Sequence record: PZ019086.1
DNA length: 64,000 bases
Origin: a phage
Strand: one strand, 5' to 3'
This document shows positions 26,196-40,713 of the stretch, piece by piece. The translations under genes and the position numbers were made by a program. The notes below the pieces were generated by a model that worked only from the letters and a program-made list of their open reading frames with translations, was not told the origin of the DNA and did no database searches. How positions within the stretch are numbered: position 1 is the first letter of the stretch; each line of letters opens with the position of its first letter.

Positions 26196-26231
26196 AAGAT
26201 TATTATAACACAACACGAGGGACTTGTAAAC
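26196..26231 (-). promoter_or_regulatory. T4-type early promoter: GTTTACA-N17-TATAAT
   Basis: Minus strand reads GTTTACAAGTCCCTCGTGTTGTGTTATAAT; 53-nt region near-identical to 42093-42145. Confidence 0.7.
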
Positions 26232-28288
26232 TACATCTTGAACTTTTTAGACATTCCGTCGATGTTAACCAAAGAAGCTAAGATTTGAGAAACTTCGTTT
26301 TCCTCTTCTTTTGATTCTTCTACAAGGAATTGATTAAATCCAGCCATTGGACGAACTTCACCAGTTTCCATTAGATGGTCGCCATCATATACCGATTCTT
26401 CTAATTGTTCAGAAGGAGGAACGATTGTGCCTTCGATTAGATACTTGTTATAAGCAGTTTCTTTCATCATGTACGTGCTTACTTTATTAATCTTCAACAA
26501 AATTCCACGCGGTAAAATAACTTCAGCTTCTGATGGAAATCCTGATAAATGACCTGGAACGATAACTTTAATTCGCTCAGCCCCTTTAATTACCATACCT
26601 ACGCTAGTTTCAGCATCTTCATTCGCATAAGCAGAGTGACTACCCATATGCATTAAATCTTCAGCATCAACAGAACCTTCTCCTTCACCAGAAAATACTG
26701 CGCCGGAATCATCTAGAGCCATATAGTTTTTACCATGCTCACCGAAGATATTTGGTTTAAGCGATGTTGATACGAAGTTCTTGAAATAGAACATTTTATT
26801 TTCAATATTATGGCGTAAAGTTTTAAAGGTAACTTCTTGTCCACGATAAAGCGTAGTTCCTGGAGGAAGAACTGAACCTTTAGCGAATGCAGAATCCATT
26901 GTCTCGATGTGTTTAATAGCTCGTTCCATGTATTCTTCACGGGTAGAATCTGGTTTACCCAAGAGGAACGAGTTCATTTCAACATATGAATCTGCACAAT
27001 AATCTTCAATTACATCAGACTCAGCCTGAGTCAGTCCTTTTGGAGTTACTTCGGTGCTTGCATATTCATATGCCTGAGCAGCAGATTCATTAATCAATTT
27101 ATAAATGCCATTCATGACAAATTGAATAATAGCTACTTTTTCGTCTGGTGTGGCTTTAGAACCTTTAACTAAATCATTGATAATTTTCTTAATAACATCA
27201 AAGCTATTAGAAATATTAATGTCAGCGAGATCGCTCAAAATTTTATCGGTTTTATAATCAAAAAATTCTTTATTCTTTAAATATTCTTGAGAACCTTGAT
27301 ATGTTATATCGCTCTGCAGCTTGATAGACGGATCACGTAAACGCGCATGGGCCAATGCAATATGATTTCGGAAGCTTTCTAGTTCATAATCGTTAGATTT
27401 AAAACGAGAAGCACTTCTCATACCACCGATAGCTCCTTTGCCGAAGTTTGAACCAATCTGAATAACACCAGAGTTCATTGGTCCTTCTGCTTTATATACC
27501 GGAACTTTAGATTCAAACTCTTGATATTTCTTAGCGGCGAAGCTATCACCCTGAAGTGAAGCATCGACAGTAGAATATTGAGCTTGTGCTGCTAATCGAC
27601 GACTAATTTTAGTTTTCTGAATAACAGCTTGATCCGTACGCTTATCATTTTCTAAAGCAATAGAAGCGGCAACAGCAACAGCTTTAGGAACAGCATTACC
27701 TGTTTTAACGTCTACATAAACATCACCAACCTTTGATTCAACTTTTGTGAATAACTCAGTTGAAATAGGAGGTACACCTGGAATGTCTTCTAAATTGGCA
27801 TTTTTACGGTAAACCATAATATATGCATACTTTTTATCATAATCCCAGATTTCCTTTAAAAGAACATATCGACCTGCTCCTTTAGTACGTACTAAACGGT
27901 CAGCGATAACTTGCATTTGACGAGCTGCACCGTTTGTTTTACTCTTTAGTACGCGGAATAAGCATGCATCAATTTTATACTGTTTCATTGTCTGAAGAGC
28001 GGTATCAAAAACCGCATTAATGACACCAATTGGATTTCCACCTAAATTTTTAAGTTTAACTAATGATAGCTTTTCATTGACACCTATCATTACGATATGC
28101 ATCATTTTATCGCCTGGCTTAACGTTTTTATTTGTATCACCGCCAGAGGTGTATGTACAAAATCTAAATCCAGGAAGCACACTTTCTTCGCCGGCTTGAA
28201 TAGCAAAAATTTGAGGTATTTTATGCTTAGGATTTAAGTTAACAACCGGCGCCGAAGCGCCGTCAAATAATTCTGTAATAAGTTCCAT
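26231..28288 (-). CDS. Alt-like ADP-ribosyltransferase paralog, 685 aa
   Basis: N-terminus MELITELFD shared with Alt; C-terminal R (TLYRGQ), S-T-S (VSTSL) and E-x-E (EAEV) motifs. Confidence 0.85.
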   Translation of the reverse strand: MELITELFDGASAPVVNLNPKHKIPQIFAIQAGEESVLPGFRFCTYTSGGDTNKNVKPGDKMMHIVMIGVNEKLSLVKLKNLGGNPIGVINAVFDTALQTMKQYKIDACLFRVLKSKTNGAARQMQVIADRLVRTKGAGRYVLLKEIWDYDKKYAYIMVYRKNANLEDIPGVPPISTELFTKVESKVGDVYVDVKTGNAVPKAVAVAASIALENDKRTDQAVIQKTKISRRLAAQAQYSTVDASLQGDSFAAKKYQEFESKVPVYKAEGPMNSGVIQIGSNFGKGAIGGMRSASRFKSNDYELESFRNHIALAHARLRDPSIKLQSDITYQGSQEYLKNKEFFDYKTDKILSDLADINISNSFDVIKKIINDLVKGSKATPDEKVAIIQFVMNGIYKLINESAAQAYEYASTEVTPKGLTQAESDVIEDYCADSYVEMNSFLLGKPDSTREEYMERAIKHIETMDSAFAKGSVLPPGTTLYRGQEVTFKTLRHNIENKMFYFKNFVSTSLKPNIFGEHGKNYMALDDSGAVFSGEGEGSVDAEDLMHMGSHSAYANEDAETSVGMVIKGAERIKVIVPGHLSGFPSEAEVILPRGILLKINKVSTYMMKETAYNKYLIEGTIVPPSEQLEESVYDGDHLMETGEVRPMAGFNQFLVEESKEEENEVSQILASLVNIDGMSKKFKM

Positions 28289-28291
28289 GAT

Positions 28292-30340
28292 TTATCCTTG
28301 AACGAACTTGTAAGGCATGTTTGCGATATCTATGCAAGACGCAATAATTCCAAGAGATGATTCTGCTTTTTGTTTAACATTTGATGAAACAAATGATGCA
28401 AAGTCAACTCTATCTTCTATATCACCTGTCATTGTAACCAATTCACCAGTTTCCATTAAACGGTCACCGTCATAAATTACCGATTCGGTGAGTTCTTCTG
28501 TGGTCATAACTTCAGCTTGAATAAGCTTGTTGTTAGTTCTAACTGTTCCATCGTTGTAAGATGCATCAGTTATTTTATTGACTTTGACCATTAATCCACG
28601 TGGCAAAATGACTTCCATTTCATTTGAAGGTGCTAAACTTCCACCGGGTAAAACAACATTGACTTTATCAGCTCCAGTAATAACCCATCCAATTCCAACT
28701 AAATTATCGCTAGAATTAACAAGCCCTTCATCATTTTTATCGACAGAAATGCTTAGACGCTTTTCATCTGGTAAAACACCCACAGCTGAATCAGTCATCC
28801 AAGTACCAAAAATGTTTGGATATAATGATGTTGATACAAAATTTCTAAAATAAAAAACTCGATTTTTTACCAGTGCTTCATATATTGAAGGTAACATTCG
28901 TTGTGAACGATACAAAGTAATACCTTTTGGTAATCGTTCACCATTTTTAAAGGCTGAATCTAAATTATCAATGGCTTGTTCTATTTCAGGTGCTGTTAAA
29001 ATACTTGTACGCTCATCTGGATTATATAATCCCAAAAGAGCATTATTCATGTCTACATATCCTGAACCTACATATTCACGAATTCCGCGTTTTTGCGCTG
29101 GTGTGTATTTAGATGAATCTTTATTTTCGACTATAGGATGTAATGACCATCCAGCGGTAAGAGCATATCCACGTAATTCTCTTCGAATAATCTTTGTTTT
29201 TATTGCATTCCAAGAATTTTGTACTAACTCATTTGCAGCATCTTGGTTTAAATGCGAATGTCTGTTAATATTTCTTTCAAACCAAGCACCTTTATATTTT
29301 TCTAAAGTATCATCGACGATAGAAGCAATAGTTTCTAAAGTTTTTATTGAAGTAATAGATTCTTTTCGTAATTTTTCTAAAGCTTTATTTTTTATTTCTG
29401 CATTAACGTCAGATTCTTTATCTTCAGGAATTATAGAAGCTTCTCTGAATGCCATTCCAGCTGTAACACTATTAAGAGCATTCTCTAATGCAAATCCTGA
29501 AGTAGAAATAACAGTTAATTCGTTAGCATCAGAAATTAAAGGCGCGTCGGCGGGTTTATTTAATTCTGCTGCTGAAGCCTCAAATTTTTGAAACATTGGT
29601 GTTTCAAATCTAGAAGATTCTAATGATTGACTTTGTGCAATTGCTCTACGGGAAATTTTAACTTTAACGATTACAGCTTGGTCAGAACGCTTATCATTTT
29701 CTTGTGCAATAGATGCTGCAATTGCCTCATTTTTAGTTACTTGAGCTCCAGTATCTTTATTGATATAAACATCACCGACCTTCGATTCAACTTTAGTAAA
29801 GAGCTCGGTACTAATTTCCGGAACTCCTGGAATGTCTTCTAGTGATACATTTTTGCGATGTATAAGAATATATGCATACTTTTTATCATAATCCCAGAGT
29901 TCCTTAAGAAGGACGTATCTGCCACCTGAACGACTACGGATAAGTCTATCAGCAATAACTTGAATTTGTCGAGCTTGACCAGCAGTTTTAGACTTAAGAA
30001 TACGAAGCATGCAGGCATCAATTTTATACTGGCGCATCGTCTGCATTGCAACAGTAAAAACTGAATTGATGTAATTAATTGGGCTTGGACCGAGACCTTT
30101 TAATTTAGCAATTGAACCTTTAGCAGTTAATGTAAAAGGAACAATATGCATCATTTTATCACCCATTTTTAAATCGCGATTAGTATCACCTCCAGATGTA
30201 TAGGTACATAAACGAAAGCCTGGTTGTTCAATTGCATCATCAACGTGAACTGAAAAAATTTGTGGTATTTTCTTCTTTGGATTTAAGTTTGTAATCGGAA
30301 GAGTAGTATCTTCGTCAAATAATTCTGTAATAAGTTCCAT
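28292..30340 (-). CDS. alt: Alt ADP-ribosyltransferase, about 682 aa
   Basis: Matches remembered T4 Alt N-terminus MELITELFDEDTTLPITNL; R/STS/ExE motifs (TLYRSQ, VSTSL, EMEV); minus-strand late promoter just upstream. Confidence 0.93.
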   Translation of the reverse strand: MELITELFDEDTTLPITNLNPKKKIPQIFSVHVDDAIEQPGFRLCTYTSGGDTNRDLKMGDKMMHIVPFTLTAKGSIAKLKGLGPSPINYINSVFTVAMQTMRQYKIDACMLRILKSKTAGQARQIQVIADRLIRSRSGGRYVLLKELWDYDKKYAYILIHRKNVSLEDIPGVPEISTELFTKVESKVGDVYINKDTGAQVTKNEAIAASIAQENDKRSDQAVIVKVKISRRAIAQSQSLESSRFETPMFQKFEASAAELNKPADAPLISDANELTVISTSGFALENALNSVTAGMAFREASIIPEDKESDVNAEIKNKALEKLRKESITSIKTLETIASIVDDTLEKYKGAWFERNINRHSHLNQDAANELVQNSWNAIKTKIIRRELRGYALTAGWSLHPIVENKDSSKYTPAQKRGIREYVGSGYVDMNNALLGLYNPDERTSILTAPEIEQAIDNLDSAFKNGERLPKGITLYRSQRMLPSIYEALVKNRVFYFRNFVSTSLYPNIFGTWMTDSAVGVLPDEKRLSISVDKNDEGLVNSSDNLVGIGWVITGADKVNVVLPGGSLAPSNEMEVILPRGLMVKVNKITDASYNDGTVRTNNKLIQAEVMTTEELTESVIYDGDRLMETGELVTMTGDIEDRVDFASFVSSNVKQKAESSLGIIASCIDIANMPYKFVQG

Positions 30341-30363
30341 CATAGCCTCTCTAGTGTTTATTC

Positions 30364-30371
30364 TATTTATA
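30364..30371 (-). promoter_or_regulatory. Late promoter TATAAATA (minus strand) upstream of alt
   Basis: Plus-strand TATTTATA, i.e. TATAAATA on the minus strand, about 20 nt upstream of alt start. Confidence 0.6.
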
Positions 30372-30392
30372 AAATTAAAGGCCCGAAGGCCT

Positions 30393-30581
30393 TTAATAAT
30401 CTATTGGTAAGAGAGTACGGTATATTTCAAACTTTGGGCCTTTTTCGTAGGCATCAAATGTTTCTGTAAATTTATTATAAGCATATGCATCTACAAATTC
30501 GAGAACGATTTGTGATACAGAAGTAGAAACATCTCCACCTTCTTTTTGAGCAACGACAATTGTTTCTAAGTAAGCTTTCAT
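30393..30581 (-). CDS. Hypothetical small protein, 62 aa, coupled to gene 30 stop
   Basis: ATG overlaps gene 30 TGA (ATGA); no domain recognised. Confidence 0.45.
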   Translation of the reverse strand: MKAYLETIVVAQKEGGDVSTSVSQIVLEFVDAYAYNKFTETFDAYEKGPKFEIYRTLLPIDY

Positions 30582-32041
30582 AGACCAGTTACCTCATGAA
30601 AATCACCAAATACATCCTCGAATGTATTAGCTTTAGTTTTATCTTCACGTAAACGAATCGCAATTGGAAGAAATAATTTTACGTAATCAGTGCGGCCATC
30701 AGATTTTAACCAACCATTGCATTCGCACTCTAGAATTTTTCCAATATAATAATTTTGGTTTTCCATAATGCGAGTACGGTCAAGTTCATGCGATTTTACA
30801 CCGGCTTTATCTTTTAAGCCTGAACCAGCATTTACTTTAATTTTTCCACACTCTGATTCAAGAATAAATCCACCTGCTTTAGTAGGGTCTTTACGATGAG
30901 GATAAATTCCTACAATTTTTAAATCAACATCAATTACTTCTTTAAATTTATAGAGATTTTTTGAACGAGAATTTTCCCATAATCCATCGGTATTTTTGAG
31001 AATAATACCTTCAAGACCTTGGTCAATATACTTTTTATAAATTACCTTAGCTTCATCTAGGTTATTTACTACCTGGTTTTCAATTAAAATTACTTTATCA
31101 TATCCTGATGTCATTTGTTCTAGTTTAGAAAAACGTACATCATATTTTAAACGAAACGCCGGAAGACCATATATTTCTACCAACGGGACATAATCCCAGA
31201 CCTGAAACTTCATGCATTGAGCTTCTTTTTCAGAAATGGTTCCTTTTAAGGATTTATTGGCGATTCCATTAGAAGTAGTACGAGATTCTGCTACTTCGGC
31301 GAATTCTTTAGCTTTACTAATTTCAGGATAAGCATCAAAAAGAAAATCTAGGCCTTCTGGTTCCTTTTCAACTTGCTCATGGTATACCAATTCGCCATCA
31401 ATTAACACACCTTCTGGATGAATCTGGCGGGCTTCAGCAGTCATTTTGATTAACTCTTCCTTGAGAAGATCTAATCCTAGATATTCATTACCGGCTCGTG
31501 ATAAAAGACGAACATCATCTAATTCATCACCTCGGACTTCAGCAAAACACCGAGCTCCATCTGCTTTTAACTGCGCGAAGGCTGGAAATTTGATATTCTT
31601 ACTAATGCCTTTTTCATCATAAGAACTTGCCAGCATTTGAGGTTGTTCAGGAATTAAACCTGGCCAAACTTTGTTTGCAATAGATACTGAAGCACCGCAT
31701 TCAAGGTCTCGCATCATAACTCGACGCAAAACTTCAACATCATCCTTTTTACCATCAGTGATATATCCAGTTAATTCCTCAATTGCAGCATTTCCAGTCA
31801 ATTTCCGAGTAGCTAACGTGAATTCAATGAAGTCAAGCATATCGGTAATAGTCAGCATTCCAAAACTCTGGGTAGCAATACCAGGCTTAGGCCATTTCTT
31901 AATATAATACTGTAACCCACGAGAATAAGTCAGACGATATACCCGTTTAAGCAATTCATTATCTTTATTCTTTTCAAGAATTGCTTGCTTCTGCTTAGTT
32001 GATCCAATAGATGCTATTTCATTCAGAATTTTAAGAATCAT
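30578..32041 (-). CDS. 30: ATP-dependent DNA ligase (gp30), 487 aa
   Basis: 487 aa; adenylation motif KADGAR; matches T4 ligase length. Confidence 0.95.
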   Translation of the reverse strand: MILKILNEIASIGSTKQKQAILEKNKDNELLKRVYRLTYSRGLQYYIKKWPKPGIATQSFGMLTITDMLDFIEFTLATRKLTGNAAIEELTGYITDGKKDDVEVLRRVMMRDLECGASVSIANKVWPGLIPEQPQMLASSYDEKGISKNIKFPAFAQLKADGARCFAEVRGDELDDVRLLSRAGNEYLGLDLLKEELIKMTAEARQIHPEGVLIDGELVYHEQVEKEPEGLDFLFDAYPEISKAKEFAEVAESRTTSNGIANKSLKGTISEKEAQCMKFQVWDYVPLVEIYGLPAFRLKYDVRFSKLEQMTSGYDKVILIENQVVNNLDEAKVIYKKYIDQGLEGIILKNTDGLWENSRSKNLYKFKEVIDVDLKIVGIYPHRKDPTKAGGFILESECGKIKVNAGSGLKDKAGVKSHELDRTRIMENQNYYIGKILECECNGWLKSDGRTDYVKLFLPIAIRLREDKTKANTFEDVFGDFHEVTGL

Positions 32042-32307
32042 TGTTCATCCTTCAGAGTTTGATTTACAGCTCTATTATAAATCAATTCATCATTAAGCTC
32101 AGTTAAAGACCTATGATATGTAGTTCTAACTTTATTTCCTTGCATCCAGTGCTTGATATAAATGAAACCTTGCTCTACACATTTTTTAAAAATTCGTTCG
32201 TCTTTTTGAGCTCGGAATTCTGGATTACATCTAAAGAATTGATTTACGTGACCGTAATCACGTGTAGTATTACCTTCATTTTCATAAATAGTGTGAACGA
32301 CAAACAT
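32038..32307 (-). CDS. Hypothetical protein (T4 30.1 position), 89 aa
   Basis: ORF coupled to neighbours on the same strand. Confidence 0.6.
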   Translation of the reverse strand: MFVVHTIYENEGNTTRDYGHVNQFFRCNPEFRAQKDERIFKKCVEQGFIYIKHWMQGNKVRTTYHRSLTELNDELIYNRAVNQTLKDEQ

Positions 32308-33146
32308 TAGAATGCTCCTTGGAAAATATTATCACCGCTAGTAGGTCTATTATACAAATACTCTATGCCACCAGGTTTAATATAGTTCCATGTCTGAAAC
32401 GGATGTGTCTGATATGGATGATATAGATGATTATAAGGATTAAATCCAGGCGTTCTCCAGGTAGTGTTCCAAGGAAAAGAATCGTTTTTAACCATCTTCT
32501 CAATTAAATCTTTTATAGCTTTTTCACTATCAAAACTTTCTTTATTTTCCTTTGGTGAAAAAAGCTTATTTTCTACATCATTCCATGTATAAACTCGCTG
32601 CGCAGTTTTTGGAATATTGTCACGCTCTCCTCGAGCCATCCAATAAACCGGAACATTTAATATTTCACTCGCATGATCGCAGTGGTGAGCAAGATCGTCA
32701 ATATAACAAATTACGTTATATTTCTCTTTTGCCTTTTTAAACAACTCTTCTTTTGAAGAATCATGACCACACATCATTACTTCTGAGAAGGCACCAGGAA
32801 AAAGAGCATTCAAATTAAATTGACGATTCAACAGAGCGTCAATAGAATCACCCAATGCTGTAACAGCTACAAAATTATAATCTTCTTTTAATTTGTTAAT
32901 TACACACAGGGCATCTTTATATGGAGACAAGTAACGAATAAAATCTGATCGATTGTATTTTTCAATTAGCTTGACACCGAGTTCTTCATCGCAATTAAAG
33001 AGTTTACCTGGAGAAATAAATTTCTCATCTTGGATCATTTTTAAAATATGTTCTAACGGAAGATTATATTTCTGAGCAAAATAAGGAAGGCCTGATTGCC
33101 AGCTTAAACATACTCCATCAATATCAGTTAAAATAGTAGGCTTCAT
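32307..33146 (-). CDS. HAD-superfamily phosphatase-like protein (T4 30.2 position), 279 aa
   Basis: N-terminal DxDGV motif (LTDIDGV) typical of HAD hydrolases and 5-prime nucleotidases. Confidence 0.7.
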   Translation of the reverse strand: MKPTILTDIDGVCLSWQSGLPYFAQKYNLPLEHILKMIQDEKFISPGKLFNCDEELGVKLIEKYNRSDFIRYLSPYKDALCVINKLKEDYNFVAVTALGDSIDALLNRQFNLNALFPGAFSEVMMCGHDSSKEELFKKAKEKYNVICYIDDLAHHCDHASEILNVPVYWMARGERDNIPKTAQRVYTWNDVENKLFSPKENKESFDSEKAIKDLIEKMVKNDSFPWNTTWRTPGFNPYNHLYHPYQTHPFQTWNYIKPGGIEYLYNRPTSGDNIFQGAF

Positions 33147-33607
33147 AGAGAGTCTCTTAATAGATTTAACACATCAATAAATTCAGCTTCGGTTAGTATT
33201 GTATCATCTTTTGTTAGACCACTAGCCATGCTGTGCTTCAAAACTTTTCCTTTTGAGGCTTGTAATGCATCACGAAAGCCCCTGTTTTGGATCGCTGCTT
33301 CAAAATATGCATTTGTGTATAATTCTTTCCATGCTTCGGAATATCTTGAAAACGGAGTTCCAAGCCAGAACAACGTGCCACGGTCCTGAGCTCTAGCATA
33401 AGACCTTCCAGCTTGTTGGGCGGCAATCCCGGATAACCTAAATATACGTCTTTGCTGTTCAACATTTTTCACCTTACATCCTTGTAGGAATCCTTCGAGA
33501 CCTCCAAATTGAATGCCATCCATGACGAAAGGCCATTGGGCGAAATTACTTAATGCGCATGATGGCCATCTAAAATTGCTTCTTATCTCTAACTCAGACA
33601 TTTTCAA
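33143..33607 (-). CDS. NADAR (YbiA-like, DUF1768) domain protein (T4 30.3 position), 154 aa
   Basis: LSNFAQWPFVMDG ... GFLQGCK resembles the YbiA FSNFAAWP ... EHYFQAQKF core. Confidence 0.72.
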   Translation of the reverse strand: MKMSELEIRSNFRWPSCALSNFAQWPFVMDGIQFGGLEGFLQGCKVKNVEQQRRIFRLSGIAAQQAGRSYARAQDRGTLFWLGTPFSRYSEAWKELYTNAYFEAAIQNRGFRDALQASKGKVLKHSMASGLTKDDTILTEAEFIDVLNLLRDSL

Positions 33608-33800
33608 TACTTATAATTTCAACATCAGCCCAATGACCATAGCAAGGAAGACGAAATTCAACTGGCCAGTTAGGGTCCTTTTCTAATATAATAGACTGAA
33701 CTTGTGGCTCTTCATATTCATCGGTATACGGACCTTTATACGTTACTTTATATGTGACCTTAATATACTGAATTCCAAAAATCTTATTAATTATATTCAT
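33594..33800 (-). CDS. Hypothetical protein, 68 aa
   Basis: ORF in tightly coupled series. Confidence 0.5.
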   Translation of the reverse strand: MNIINKIFGIQYIKVTYKVTYKGPYTDEYEEPQVQSIILEKDPNWPVEFRLPCYGHWADVEIISIENV

Positions 33801-33994
33801 ACTAATTCCTTTAATCCATAGATAGGAGATAATTCATCGCCCATGCGAAGGTCTTCATTTCCATCTACCCAGGAAACAATATAAGCTTCTTTTATTTGAA
33901 CGTCTCTCCATTTAAATGGAGGTAGAACCTTAGAAATTAATCCAGGTATACCGACTCCCTTTAATTCAACAGTTTGACCTAAAAAGAATTTCAT
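33797..33994 (-). CDS. Hypothetical protein, 65 aa
   Basis: ORF in tightly coupled series. Confidence 0.5.
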   Translation of the reverse strand: MKFFLGQTVELKGVGIPGLISKVLPPFKWRDVQIKEAYIVSWVDGNEDLRMGDELSPIYGLKELV

Positions 33995-34281
33995 TAGAAC
34001 CTCATCTGAAAACCGTGCGATTTAACATTACCGCCGCCAATGTCAGAAATGTTAATTTCACGCGCAATTGAAGGGTCAATGTCAATTTCACGATTGAGTT
34101 TAGTGATAGCTAAAGTATCGCGCCCATTTACAGTACGGAACTCTAAAGGACATACTACATTAACGTAGTTTTTAATCGATTCGCTGGTAGGTTGCAAATG
34201 AGCAGGAAGGTCTTTAGGTGCCTTAGAGAAAACCACTTCACAGAAATTTTTGCGGGTATCAAAATAAGTAGTCATAAACAT
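33994..34281 (-). CDS. Hypothetical protein, 95 aa
   Basis: ORF in tightly coupled series. Confidence 0.55.
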   Translation of the reverse strand: MFMTTYFDTRKNFCEVVFSKAPKDLPAHLQPTSESIKNYVNVVCPLEFRTVNGRDTLAITKLNREIDIDPSIAREINISDIGGGNVKSHGFQMRF

Positions 34282-34322
34282 AGTATTTTCCTCAGTAAGG
34301 GGCCGAAGCCCCTCATTTTATT

Positions 34323-34688
34323 TTAAATATCAAATTCGTTAAGAACTACATCAAAGATTGCTTCAAGATGCTCAGGTTTAGCTCTGTTACTCAGAATATG
34401 ACGAATCCAAGTTTTAACCAGAAGCTTGCGATTAACGCCATTCCAACAAGGATGAGTCCCTAAATCGCGTTGACGAAAATCATCATCCAATGCGATTTTA
34501 AAAGAAGAACCTTCTTTCGTGATTGAAACCGTGATGCCATTTTCAAATCGCATATAAACGTAGTTAGGAGTCATATACTGTTCAATTTCGCATACTGATC
34601 CGTTTTGATGTTTCCAAAGGCAAATAGTATCAATAGAACCTGCAATACCATTAGAAACATATTTACGTTCAAAGTTGATGTAGTTCAT
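34323..34688 (-). CDS. Hypothetical protein, 121 aa
   Basis: ORF with upstream early promoter-like element. Confidence 0.6.
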   Translation of the reverse strand: MNYINFERKYVSNGIAGSIDTICLWKHQNGSVCEIEQYMTPNYVYMRFENGITVSITKEGSSFKIALDDDFRQRDLGTHPCWNGVNRKLLVKTWIRHILSNRAKPEHLEAIFDVVLNEFDI

Positions 34689-34725
34689 TTTTATTCTCCG
34701 AGATGTTTAATTGCGGTACAGGTAT

Positions 34726-34753
34726 ATAATATCATATCCTGTACCAAAGTAAA
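34726..34753 (-). promoter_or_regulatory. Candidate early promoter GTTTACT-N16-TATTAT
   Basis: Minus-strand GTTTAC motif with -10-like TATTAT, about 40 nt upstream of ORF start 34688. Confidence 0.5.
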
Positions 34754-34756
34754 CAA

Positions 34757-35089
34757 TTATTTTACTACTTTCCAGTGCTGCATGTCAAGTTTACCAACTT
34801 TTTTCATCTTCTCAATTAAGCGTTCGGCACGTTGGCGAGCTGTAACATAATACCATTCACCTAATTCATTTTGTTCAATTTTTCCAACGATTACTGTATT
34901 CAATTCATAAATCCAACCAGTAAAGAAATTATGAACTTGAATTGTAAAGGTGAAATCTGTTCCCATACCTTCTGTTGTTTCTACTTCAATAACATCACCT
35001 TCAACTGCCATTAAGAACCACATAGTTTCATCATATTTACCATTGAAGCATTTAGTTTTAACTGTGGCGTTCAGATTAATCGTTTTCAT
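34757..35089 (-). CDS. Hypothetical protein, 110 aa
   Basis: ORF with GGAGAA RBS and upstream early promoter. Confidence 0.6.
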   Translation of the reverse strand: MKTINLNATVKTKCFNGKYDETMWFLMAVEGDVIEVETTEGMGTDFTFTIQVHNFFTGWIYELNTVIVGKIEQNELGEWYYVTARQRAERLIEKMKKVGKLDMQHWKVVK

Positions 35090-35116
35090 TTTATTCTCCT
35101 TTGTTTGTGTAAGATA

Positions 35117-35145
35117 ATACTATCACAAAGGAACTATACTGTAAA
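35117..35145 (-). promoter_or_regulatory. T4-type early promoter GTTTACA-N17-TAGTAT
   Basis: Minus strand GTTTACAGTATAGTTCCTTTGTGATAGTAT, about 30 nt upstream of ORF start 35089. Confidence 0.6.
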
Positions 35146-35165
35146 CAACTTTATGCAATCTTTGG

Positions 35166-35194
35166 AAAATAAAAAAGGACTCCCGAAGGAGTCC
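35166..35194 (-). terminator. Rho-independent terminator (minus strand) after the small basic ORF
   Basis: GGACTCC-TTCG-GGAGTCC hairpin followed by TTTTTTATTTT on the minus strand. Confidence 0.7.
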
Positions 35195-35199
35195 TTAAC

Positions 35200-35376
35200 T
35201 TATGCTTTCTGCTTACCAAAACGAGAAGCATCATCTCGAAGAACCGCACGTGCTCGGCGCATGATCTTCTCAACAGTTTGATTGATACGAGAGTTCGACC
35301 CACGCTTGTAACCAGCGCGTTTAGAATCACCAACTTTCTTTTCAACTGCTTTCTTTGCTTTAGCTTGTTTTGCCAT
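35200..35376 (-). CDS. Small highly basic protein, about 57 aa
   Basis: ATG at 35376 (MAKQAKAKKAVEKK...); Lys/Arg-rich; ORF-track N-terminal extension not preferred. Confidence 0.55.
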   Translation of the reverse strand: MAKQAKAKKAVEKKVGDSKRAGYKRGSNSRINQTVEKIMRRARAVLRDDASRFGKQKA

Positions 35377-35774
35377 TATAAATTCTCTTTTAAATGAAAA
35401 TGCAGGACTTATTGGCATTGCCTGCGCAAGCCCTCAAGGGGAACATAGGTTTTTGAATATTTAACGACCAGGATAACCATAAACCCGTCATCATACCTTA
35501 TAGCTCTTATCTGTTGCACACCGTTAGCTTAAAGGTTCCGGGTCCGATTTCTCGAGGATAAGATATATACTGATGGATATATAGGCCTTGAGGCGTACTC
35601 CCGATTAGCCATCACCTCGGGGTAGCATGCACTTGCCGCTATAAGAATAACATTCAAGAGGTACACCGTAAAACTGCCGGGGTCTTAAAACTATAATGAT
35701 TCGCAAATCATTAATCAGACAGTTCGACGGCTCCTCGATTTTAGCTCACACTAAGGCAGTGAATCTCCAATAAA

Positions 35775-39320: not shown

Positions 39321-40713
<1,393 letters not shown>

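Follow-up and report, generated by a model that had tools for sequence, protein, structure and literature searches.

An AdfN-type NADAR gene and a predicted HAD phosphatase gene in a T4-like phage: probably two independent early genes

Introduction

Does a NADAR gene that adjoins a gene for a HAD-superfamily phosphatase, with two Alt-type ADP-ribosyltransferase genes a few kilobases away, belong to an ADP-ribose turnover system encoded by the phage itself? The question is raised by genes 30.3 and 30.2 in a 64,000-nucleotide stretch of phage DNA (sequence record PZ019086.1; hereafter the window). A sequence-only reading had noted two open reading frames (ORFs) here, within 32307–33607, with a DxDGV HAD motif in the 279-residue product and a NADAR signature in the 154-residue product, in the neighborhood of DNA ligase and two Alt transferases. 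The ORFs lie on the minus strand, at 32307–33146 (279 residues) and 33143–33607 (154 residues), and the motifs are D8-I-D10-G-V in the former and S18-N-F-A-Q-W-P and G37-F-L-Q-G-C-K43 in the latter. The sequence-only reading had proposed a role in ADP-ribose turnover or in counter-defense, for example against DarT-type DNA ADP-ribosylation. The ORFs, both motifs and the gene context were confirmed by our analysis, and so was the anti-DarT role of the NADAR protein, which is already known from the 96%-identical T4 orthologue AdfN. The parts assigned to the phosphatase and to Alt did not hold. We consider, with a probability of about 0.9, that the locus is ordinary and already explained, and that it comprises two early genes of a T4-like phage that are independent of each other.

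Results

The window was found to be a T4-like (Tequatrovirus) genome. In a nucleotide comparison, the 2-kb stretch around 30.2 and 30.3 showed 97.7% identity to Shigella phage KRT47 and matched 673 phage records, nearly all from Tequatrovirus relatives, and the layout of the window corresponds to the annotated T4 order alt / alt.1 / 30 / 30.1 / 30.2 / 30.3 / 30.4 (Table 1). The gene products are nearly those of T4, with 146/152 identical residues (96%) and equal length for gp30.3, and 271/279 (97%) for gp30.2. The 154-residue form of gp30.3 in the ORF list came from a mechanical TTG start, while the start annotated in T4 is the ATG at 33601, which affords 152 residues; the latter was favored because the published residue numbers E36 and K43 fit this start exclusively.

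Profile searches assigned gp30.3 to the Pfam family Phage_30_3 (PF08010) with an E-value of 9.1e-69 and a bit score of 230 (cut-off 36), covering profile positions 1–138 of 138, which is well outside what chance would give. The connection with NADAR proteins emerged at the family level from an alignment of 71 homologues (34–86% identical), among which 27 also matched the Pfam NADAR model PF08719 (best E 1.5e-7). Moreover, the family profile matched Escherichia coli YbiA (2b3w; E 0.005) over the SNFA-WP...E-x6-K segment, and the active-site segment aligned to YbiA residues 29–82. Structure prediction gave a NADAR fold for gp30.3, so that both fold and catalytic residues were re-derived here independently. 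L17, S18, N19, F20, E36, G37, F38, Q40 and H123 are invariant in the 71 homologues and K43 is at least 90% conserved; the protein carries the catalytic Glu/Lys pair seven residues apart (E36/K43), together with H123. The corresponding pair of the E. coli C7 NADAR, E88/K95, is essential, and the phage gp30.3 clade is marked by a His on the last strand, in place of the Glu of YbiA or the Asp of BC4488 and of DarT-linked NADARs such as DarG1 (PMC11543638; PMC11125620). According to the citation given by Schuller et al. (2023; PMC11543638), earlier bioinformatics of the NADAR superfamily had recognized the phage NADARs as a distinct His-bearing group, and gp30.3 of T4 and other E. coli phages was named a NADAR by Cihlova et al. 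(Toxins 2024; PMC11125620).

The window allele is full length, with a C-terminus identical to that of T4 and an intact predicted C-terminal helix. It differs from T4 AdfN by R55G, I59L, T82V, E89P, R107K and M125I, all of them conservative or surface-type and none catalytic. A class of C-terminally truncated alleles in RB3-like phages, which had appeared from a tblastn coverage of residues 1–144, was rejected as an alignment artefact, since two of these loci proved to be full length on translation. We also observed that ORF 30.3′, an alternative-frame internal ORF annotated in T4, is open in the window; its 75-residue product shares 81% identity with that of T4, against 96% in the overlapping 30.3 frame, as expected without selection at the protein level.

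The function of this gene has been established in T4 and T2. Johannesman et al. (Nat Commun 2025; PMC11825919) traced the resistance that T-even phages show to DarTG1 to gene 30.3, for which they introduced the name adfN (anti-DarT factor NADAR). T4 or T2 lacking 30.3 formed no plaques on DarTG1 hosts, and complementation was shown; ectopic adfN expression also rescued the DarTG1-sensitive phage RB69, whose own allele lacks the last 15 residues and has reduced activity. T4 AdfN was impaired by E36A, by K43A and by C-terminal truncation. In dot-blot assays the purified protein stripped ADP-ribose from DarT1-modified DNA, and it neither bound DarT1 nor countered the thymine-specific DarTG2 (PMC11825919). 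Consistently, T4 gp30.3 hydrolyzed guanine-linked but not thymine-linked ADP-ribose in vitro (PMC11125620; PMC11825919). The HIDEN-SEQ transposon screen of T4 (preprint 10.1101/2025.11.20.689424) gave the same gene, with 30.3 insertions being lost on DarTG1 (log2 fold change −7.25, adjusted p 0) and tolerated at 27/28 sites on K-12. The T4 gene is an orphan, lacking a DarT gene beside it (PMC11825919), and in the window no DarT-like ORF adjoins adfN, its neighbors being 30.4 and 30.2.

These chemical and phenotypic results were obtained with the T4 (and T2) alleles; the function of the window protein is deduced from its 96% identity to the T4 orthologue, its fold and its intact catalytic residues. 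Gene 30.3 of the window is thus very probably adfN, encoding an orphan antitoxin-like NADAR predicted to act as a DNA ADP-ribosyl-guanine glycohydrolase. In the proposed mechanism, the host toxin DarT1 of the DarTG1 system would modify guanines of the phage DNA with ADP-ribose and block replication, and AdfN would hydrolyze the N-glycosidic ADP-ribose–guanine bond and restore the DNA. Glu36 would contact the distal ribose and Lys43 the phosphate, with the clade-specific His123 as a third residue, and the enzyme would neither bind the toxin nor act on the thymine-linked ADP-ribose made by DarTG2. Carriage of the intact allele predicts that the phage is resistant to DarTG1. The reading of this NADAR as an anti-DarT guanine de-ADP-ribosylase was therefore correct and had already been published.

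Gene 30.2 belongs to PHROG 420, a group of unknown function (E 7e-93), and is widespread, being present in about 1,450 phage records. An alignment of 72 homologues revealed all four HAD motifs (DxD, S/T, K and DD), with D8, D10 and K132 invariant and T96, D150 and D151 at least 90% conserved. The structure model, with a predicted local distance difference test (pLDDT) score above 90 over residues 1–190, showed a Rossmannoid HAD fold with a core of about residues 1–195, a helical C1 cap (helices 16–72) that follows motif I as an insertion of about 60 residues, and a disordered, variable tail at about residues 200–279. On motifs and model together, gp30.2 is a real and probably active HAD phosphatase. 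HAD caps generally restrict enzymes to small substrates, and a small phosphoester was accordingly considered as the candidate substrate because of the capped architecture. The best match of the family profile among PDB sequences was the 5′(3′)-deoxyribonucleotidase 2jao, at a weak E of 0.13, and a single-sequence search of the same set yielded nothing stronger; weak matches to PF06941 (NT5C) and PF00702 were obtained for 16/72 and 17/72 relatives, respectively (best E for the latter 1.2e-4), and the named structural neighbors in BFVD, beyond orthologues, are mostly annotated as 5′-nucleotidases. These faint similarities point to a 5′(3′)-deoxyribonucleotidase-like phosphatase acting on nucleotides or sugar phosphates as the most likely identity, with a nucleotide as the best guess for the substrate.

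The tail of gp30.2 deserves a separate remark. It is hypervariable and disordered after the conserved core, and 28/72 members lack it. In the window it carries the motif GGIEYLYNRPT, which had no other occurrence within the window; a related pattern, [GST][ILVT]EY[LWYF]..(Q/R)PT, was present near the C-terminus in 13/72 members, and L(R/K)AYY or Y.LLN..AND occurred as alternatives in 8/72 and 7/72. By their sequence pattern, these tail motifs look like swappable docking peptides. A second HAD phosphatase is encoded in the window by the gene of PseT, the polynucleotide kinase/3′-phosphatase. Descent of gp30.2 as a PseT paralogue was considered and rejected, since hhalign gave a probability of 8.7% and aligned motif I alone.

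The genomic surroundings of both genes were compared in 79 loci of gp30.2 homologues (diverse T4-like loci from IMG/VR) and in 80 loci of NADAR homologues. DNA ligase was located within 1.5 kb of gp30.2, with gp30.2 upstream of it, in 72/79 loci, whereas a NADAR gene lay within 10 kb in 36/79 and within 300 bp in 21/79. Viewed from the NADAR side, 30.2 adjoined the gene in 13/14 close relatives and was near it in just 6/66 distant loci, where it always abutted ligase as well. In the Karamvirus Enterobacter phage fGh-Ecl04, 30.2 stands beside ligase and alt, and the NADAR gene is 58 kb away in a tRNA cluster, which suggests that the NADAR gene moved within T4-like genomes. As a side observation, the fGh-Ecl04 copy (ON212267.1, 73597–74046) lies among small ORFs and borders a Seg-like homing endonuclease region. 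The transposon data agree with the gene maps: on DarTG1, insertions in 30.2 (71 TA sites) were neutral (log2 fold change −0.12, p 0.61), and those in alt were neutral too (log2 fold change −0.01) (10.1101/2025.11.20.689424). Genes 30.2 and 30.3 are therefore not a functional pair, 30.2 is dispensable for DarTG1 resistance, and the neighbor it has kept across genomes is DNA ligase and not NADAR. The linkage to ligase, for its part, may stem from a common function in DNA or nucleotide metabolism, or from conservation of gene order and nothing more.

The closeness of NADAR to Alt is likewise conserved T4 synteny (30.3-30.2-30-alt) and no evidence of shared function. The early co-expression of NADARs with ADP-ribosyltransferases had already been remarked in comparative work, and the transferase that matters here is DarT1, the toxin of the host, and not Alt of the phage. 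The overlap of the 30.3 stop with the 30.2 start (ATGA) is not distinctive either, because similar overlaps join 30.4/30.3, 30.1/30 and alt.1/30 in the same block.

One further gene of the block responded to the toxin. Insertions in 30.4, the small neighbor upstream of adfN, were partly depleted on DarTG1 (log2 fold change −1.79, adjusted p 0.014), making it the sole other significant gene, and insertions in 30.6 and 30.7, upstream of 30.4, were neutral (10.1101/2025.11.20.689424). Since the 30.4 stop codon overlaps the adfN ATG (ATGTCTGA), translational coupling is the simplest account of the depletion, and the overlap probably represents such coupling; the alternative is that gp30.4 acts as an accessory factor, against which, unlike for 30.2, the transposon data do not speak.

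Table 1. Coordinates of genes and features in the window, in ascending order
Feature	Position	Strand	Remarks
Alt-type ADP-ribosyltransferase, second copy	26231–28288	minus	PF03496, E 3e-20; ~4.9 kb from 30.3
Alt-type ADP-ribosyltransferase	28292–30343	minus	PF03496, E 1e-33; ~2.8 kb from 30.3
alt.1	between Alt (28292–30343) and DNA ligase	minus	
Gene 30, DNA ligase	30578–32041	minus	PF01068, E 2.6e-32
Gene 30.1 (DUF3045)	32038–32307	minus	between ligase and 30.2
Gene 30.2, predicted HAD-superfamily phosphatase	32307–33146	minus	279 residues
gp30.2 C-terminal tail	32307–32550	minus	
gp30.2 tail motif	32340–32369	minus	
gp30.2 HAD motif IV, D150-D151	32694–32699	minus	
gp30.2 HAD motif III, K132	32751–32753	minus	
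gp30.2 HAD motif II, T96	32859–32861	minus	
gp30.2 HAD motif I, D8-x-D10	33117–33125	minus	invariant
Gene 30.3, adfN	33143–33601	minus	152 residues; ATG at 33601
AdfN C-terminal helix, ~residues 138–151	33146–33190	minus	predicted helix, intact
AdfN H123	33233–33235	minus	invariant in 71 homologues; predicted strand 120–123 (last beta-strand)
ORF 30.3′	33238–33465	minus	75 residues
AdfN NADAR active-site segment	33473–33550	minus	S18-N19-F20 33542–33550; E36 33494–33496; K43 33473–33475
Gene 30.4	33594–33800	minus	68 residues; directly upstream of adfN
Gene 30.8	34757–35089		
Promoter-like and terminator-like sites around gene 30.8	34759–34788 and 35175–35196	minus	promoter-like: TTGACA, 18 nucleotides, TAAAAT (11/12)
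PseT polynucleotide kinase/3′-phosphatase	39510–40418	minus	PF25109, E 3e-59

Two observations on the wider block are added. The Alt adjacent to alt.1 is the true orthologue, with 97% identity to T4 Alt, and the second Alt-type gene is full length (685 residues), shares just 42% identity with T4 Alt and stands where T4 carries the degenerate duplicates alt.-1 and alt.-2. A sequence close to the sigma-70-type promoter consensus lies upstream of 30.7, at the 5′ end of gene 30.8, and a terminator-like site with a strong hairpin and T-run is located upstream of 30.8. The scan of 30300–35500 found 22 promoter-like sites against 19.1 ± 4.2 in shuffles and hence no excess, for which reason no regulatory claim is made.

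Discussion

One argument for a two-enzyme ADP-ribose turnover module, in which the HAD phosphatase would process the product released by NADAR or a phosphorylated derivative of it, comes from gene arrangement. The two reading frames overlap, and the 21 loci with a NADAR gene at most 300 bp directly upstream of 30.2 include Acinetobacter- and Aeromonas-type phages with proteins at 34–48% identity; T4 AdfN also appears to need a T-even-specific factor. Against this stand the neutral 30.2 insertions (−0.12, compared with −7.25 for 30.3), by which the module is largely refuted for DarTG1, and the main text of the screen, which gives tk.4 as the single DarTG2 hit (10.1101/2025.11.20.689424). The two genes are, in addition, unlinked in most distant lineages, the frame overlap recurs at other junctions, and 30.2 tracks ligase, so that the module is highly improbable. 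Gene 30.2 as the T-even-specific helper of AdfN was ruled out on similar grounds, namely the T4 transposon data and the lack of conserved linkage. A tuning or reversal by NADAR of the modifications made by the phage's own Alt, ModA and ModB would fit the co-location and shared orientation of 30.3 with two Alt paralogues. Alt, however, modifies arginine in proteins, and all assayed NADARs, T4 gp30.3 included, act on guanine-linked ADP-ribose in DNA, with no activity on protein-linked ADP-ribose reported in the NADAR papers examined. Given that T4 can do without 30.3 in the absence of DarTG1, that alt insertions carry no cost on DarTG1 and that the Karamvirus NADAR is 58 kb from alt, the chance of this explanation is close to negligible.

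Degradation of riboflavin-pathway intermediates or of soluble immune signals derived from ADP-ribose, in addition to DNA repair, is a role that was suggested for phage NADARs ahead of the DarT work, and such a soluble-substrate role was shown for YbiA-type enzymes. For gp30.3 it is very unlikely, given that the 30.3 phenotype was confined to DarTG1 in the K-12 essentiality, first resampling, DarTG1 and LB-versus-M9 sheets of the screen (a comparison that does not extend to the RexAB, RnlAB and DarTG2 sheets) and that the Glu by which YbiA is classified is a His in the phage clade. As for gp30.2, its position beside ligase might instead indicate a DNA-end 3′-phosphatase that prepares nicks for sealing, and not a small-molecule nucleotidase. 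The phosphatase of PNKP is capless, while gp30.2 carries a helical cap after motif I; the phage already encodes PseT, with which profile comparison aligned motif I alone; and the broad conservation of T4-like gene order makes adjacency to ligase weak evidence. We regard a 3′-phosphatase as unlikely and retain the nucleotidase-type assignment. A broader conjecture joins two ideas, that gp30.4 is the T-even-specific helper that AdfN seems to require, and that gp30.2 is a ligase-linked phosphatase recruited through its swappable C-terminal docking peptides for a role in counter-defense or DNA metabolism. In this combined form it is quite unlikely to be right.

The reading of the locus as adfN plus an independent HAD phosphatase gene has several points against it. 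The window gp30.3 itself had no match to PF08719 at E ≤ 1 and a weak one to TIGR02464 in the NCBIfam search (E 0.11); as a single sequence against PDB sequences it reached YbiA at just E 0.38; and PADLOC matched neither gp30.2 nor gp30.3, with the DarG models in particular missing the latter. NADAR membership therefore rests on the family-level bridge and on the fold, because the single-sequence PF08719, NCBIfam and PADLOC searches were not significant. The allele differs from T4 at six positions, and its activity is predicted. T4 AdfN fails to neutralize DarT1 in uninfected cells (PMC11825919; PMC11125620) and barely rescues the non-T-even phages T5 and Bas25, for which its authors suspect a T-even-specific helper (PMC11825919); for these two reasons the picture of a free enzyme repairing DNA is incomplete, and a T-even factor or context may be needed. 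On the side of gp30.2, the window protein matched no Pfam or NCBIfam model at E ≤ 1, so that no curated HAD family was reached, the nucleotidase assignment is built on weak similarities, and a literature search found no paper on the protein. The gene is fully non-essential in T4, with insertions at 72/72 sites and neutrality in minimal versus rich medium (10.1101/2025.11.20.689424), and the transposon data showed no gp30.2 phenotype under the conditions examined. The sequence-only reading would have fallen with the absence of a NADAR profile match or of the catalytic residues, and neither was observed: PF08719 was reached through the 27 relatives, though not by the window protein directly, and the catalytic residues are in place. 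No curated HAD match was obtained for gp30.2; the predicted folds agreed with the reading for both proteins.

Taken together, annotation as members of an ADP-ribose module is not warranted for gp30.2 or for the Alt transferases. The useful results of this analysis are the negative ones, and its value as a discovery is small.

Comparison with known systems

The closest affinity of gp30.2, though a weak one, in sequence and structure is with the NT5C 5′(3′)-deoxyribonucleotidases (PF06941; mouse/human cdN 2jao and 6g2n; 3bwv). The C1-capped HAD fold and a D-x-D-G-V-L-type motif I are shared, with identity of at most 20% and no member past a curated threshold, and NT5C enzymes lack the long disordered C-terminal tail that gp30.2 carries. 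The 3′-phosphatase domain of T4 PseT (Pnkp) is capless and fused to a kinase, unlike gp30.2.

For gp30.3, T4 AdfN is the orthologue, alike in its position between 30.4 and 30.2, in E36, K43 and H123 and in the C-terminal helix; the window protein, known from its sequence, differs at positions 55, 59, 82, 89, 107 and 125. The YbiA subfamily (E. coli YbiA 2b3w; Phytophthora NADAR 8bau) has Glu on the last strand in place of the His of the phage clade, and its context is different as well, involving riboflavin intermediates and a LexA-controlled operon (PMC11125620). The DarG1 NADAR antitoxins (E. coli C7; Geobacter lovleyi 8bat) share just 13% identity with gp30.3 and have Asp at the third catalytic position, where the window protein has His; DarG1 is encoded together with DarT, whereas phage adfN is an orphan and its T4 product gives uninfected cells no relief from DarT1 toxicity. 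AdfN(Bas32) and AdfN(Bas60) of T5-like and Vequintavirinae phages resemble the T4 type in their anti-DarTG1 role and guanine specificity; they derive from other NADAR branches by independent acquisition and, unlike the T4 type, do not need phage infection in order to work (PMC11825919).

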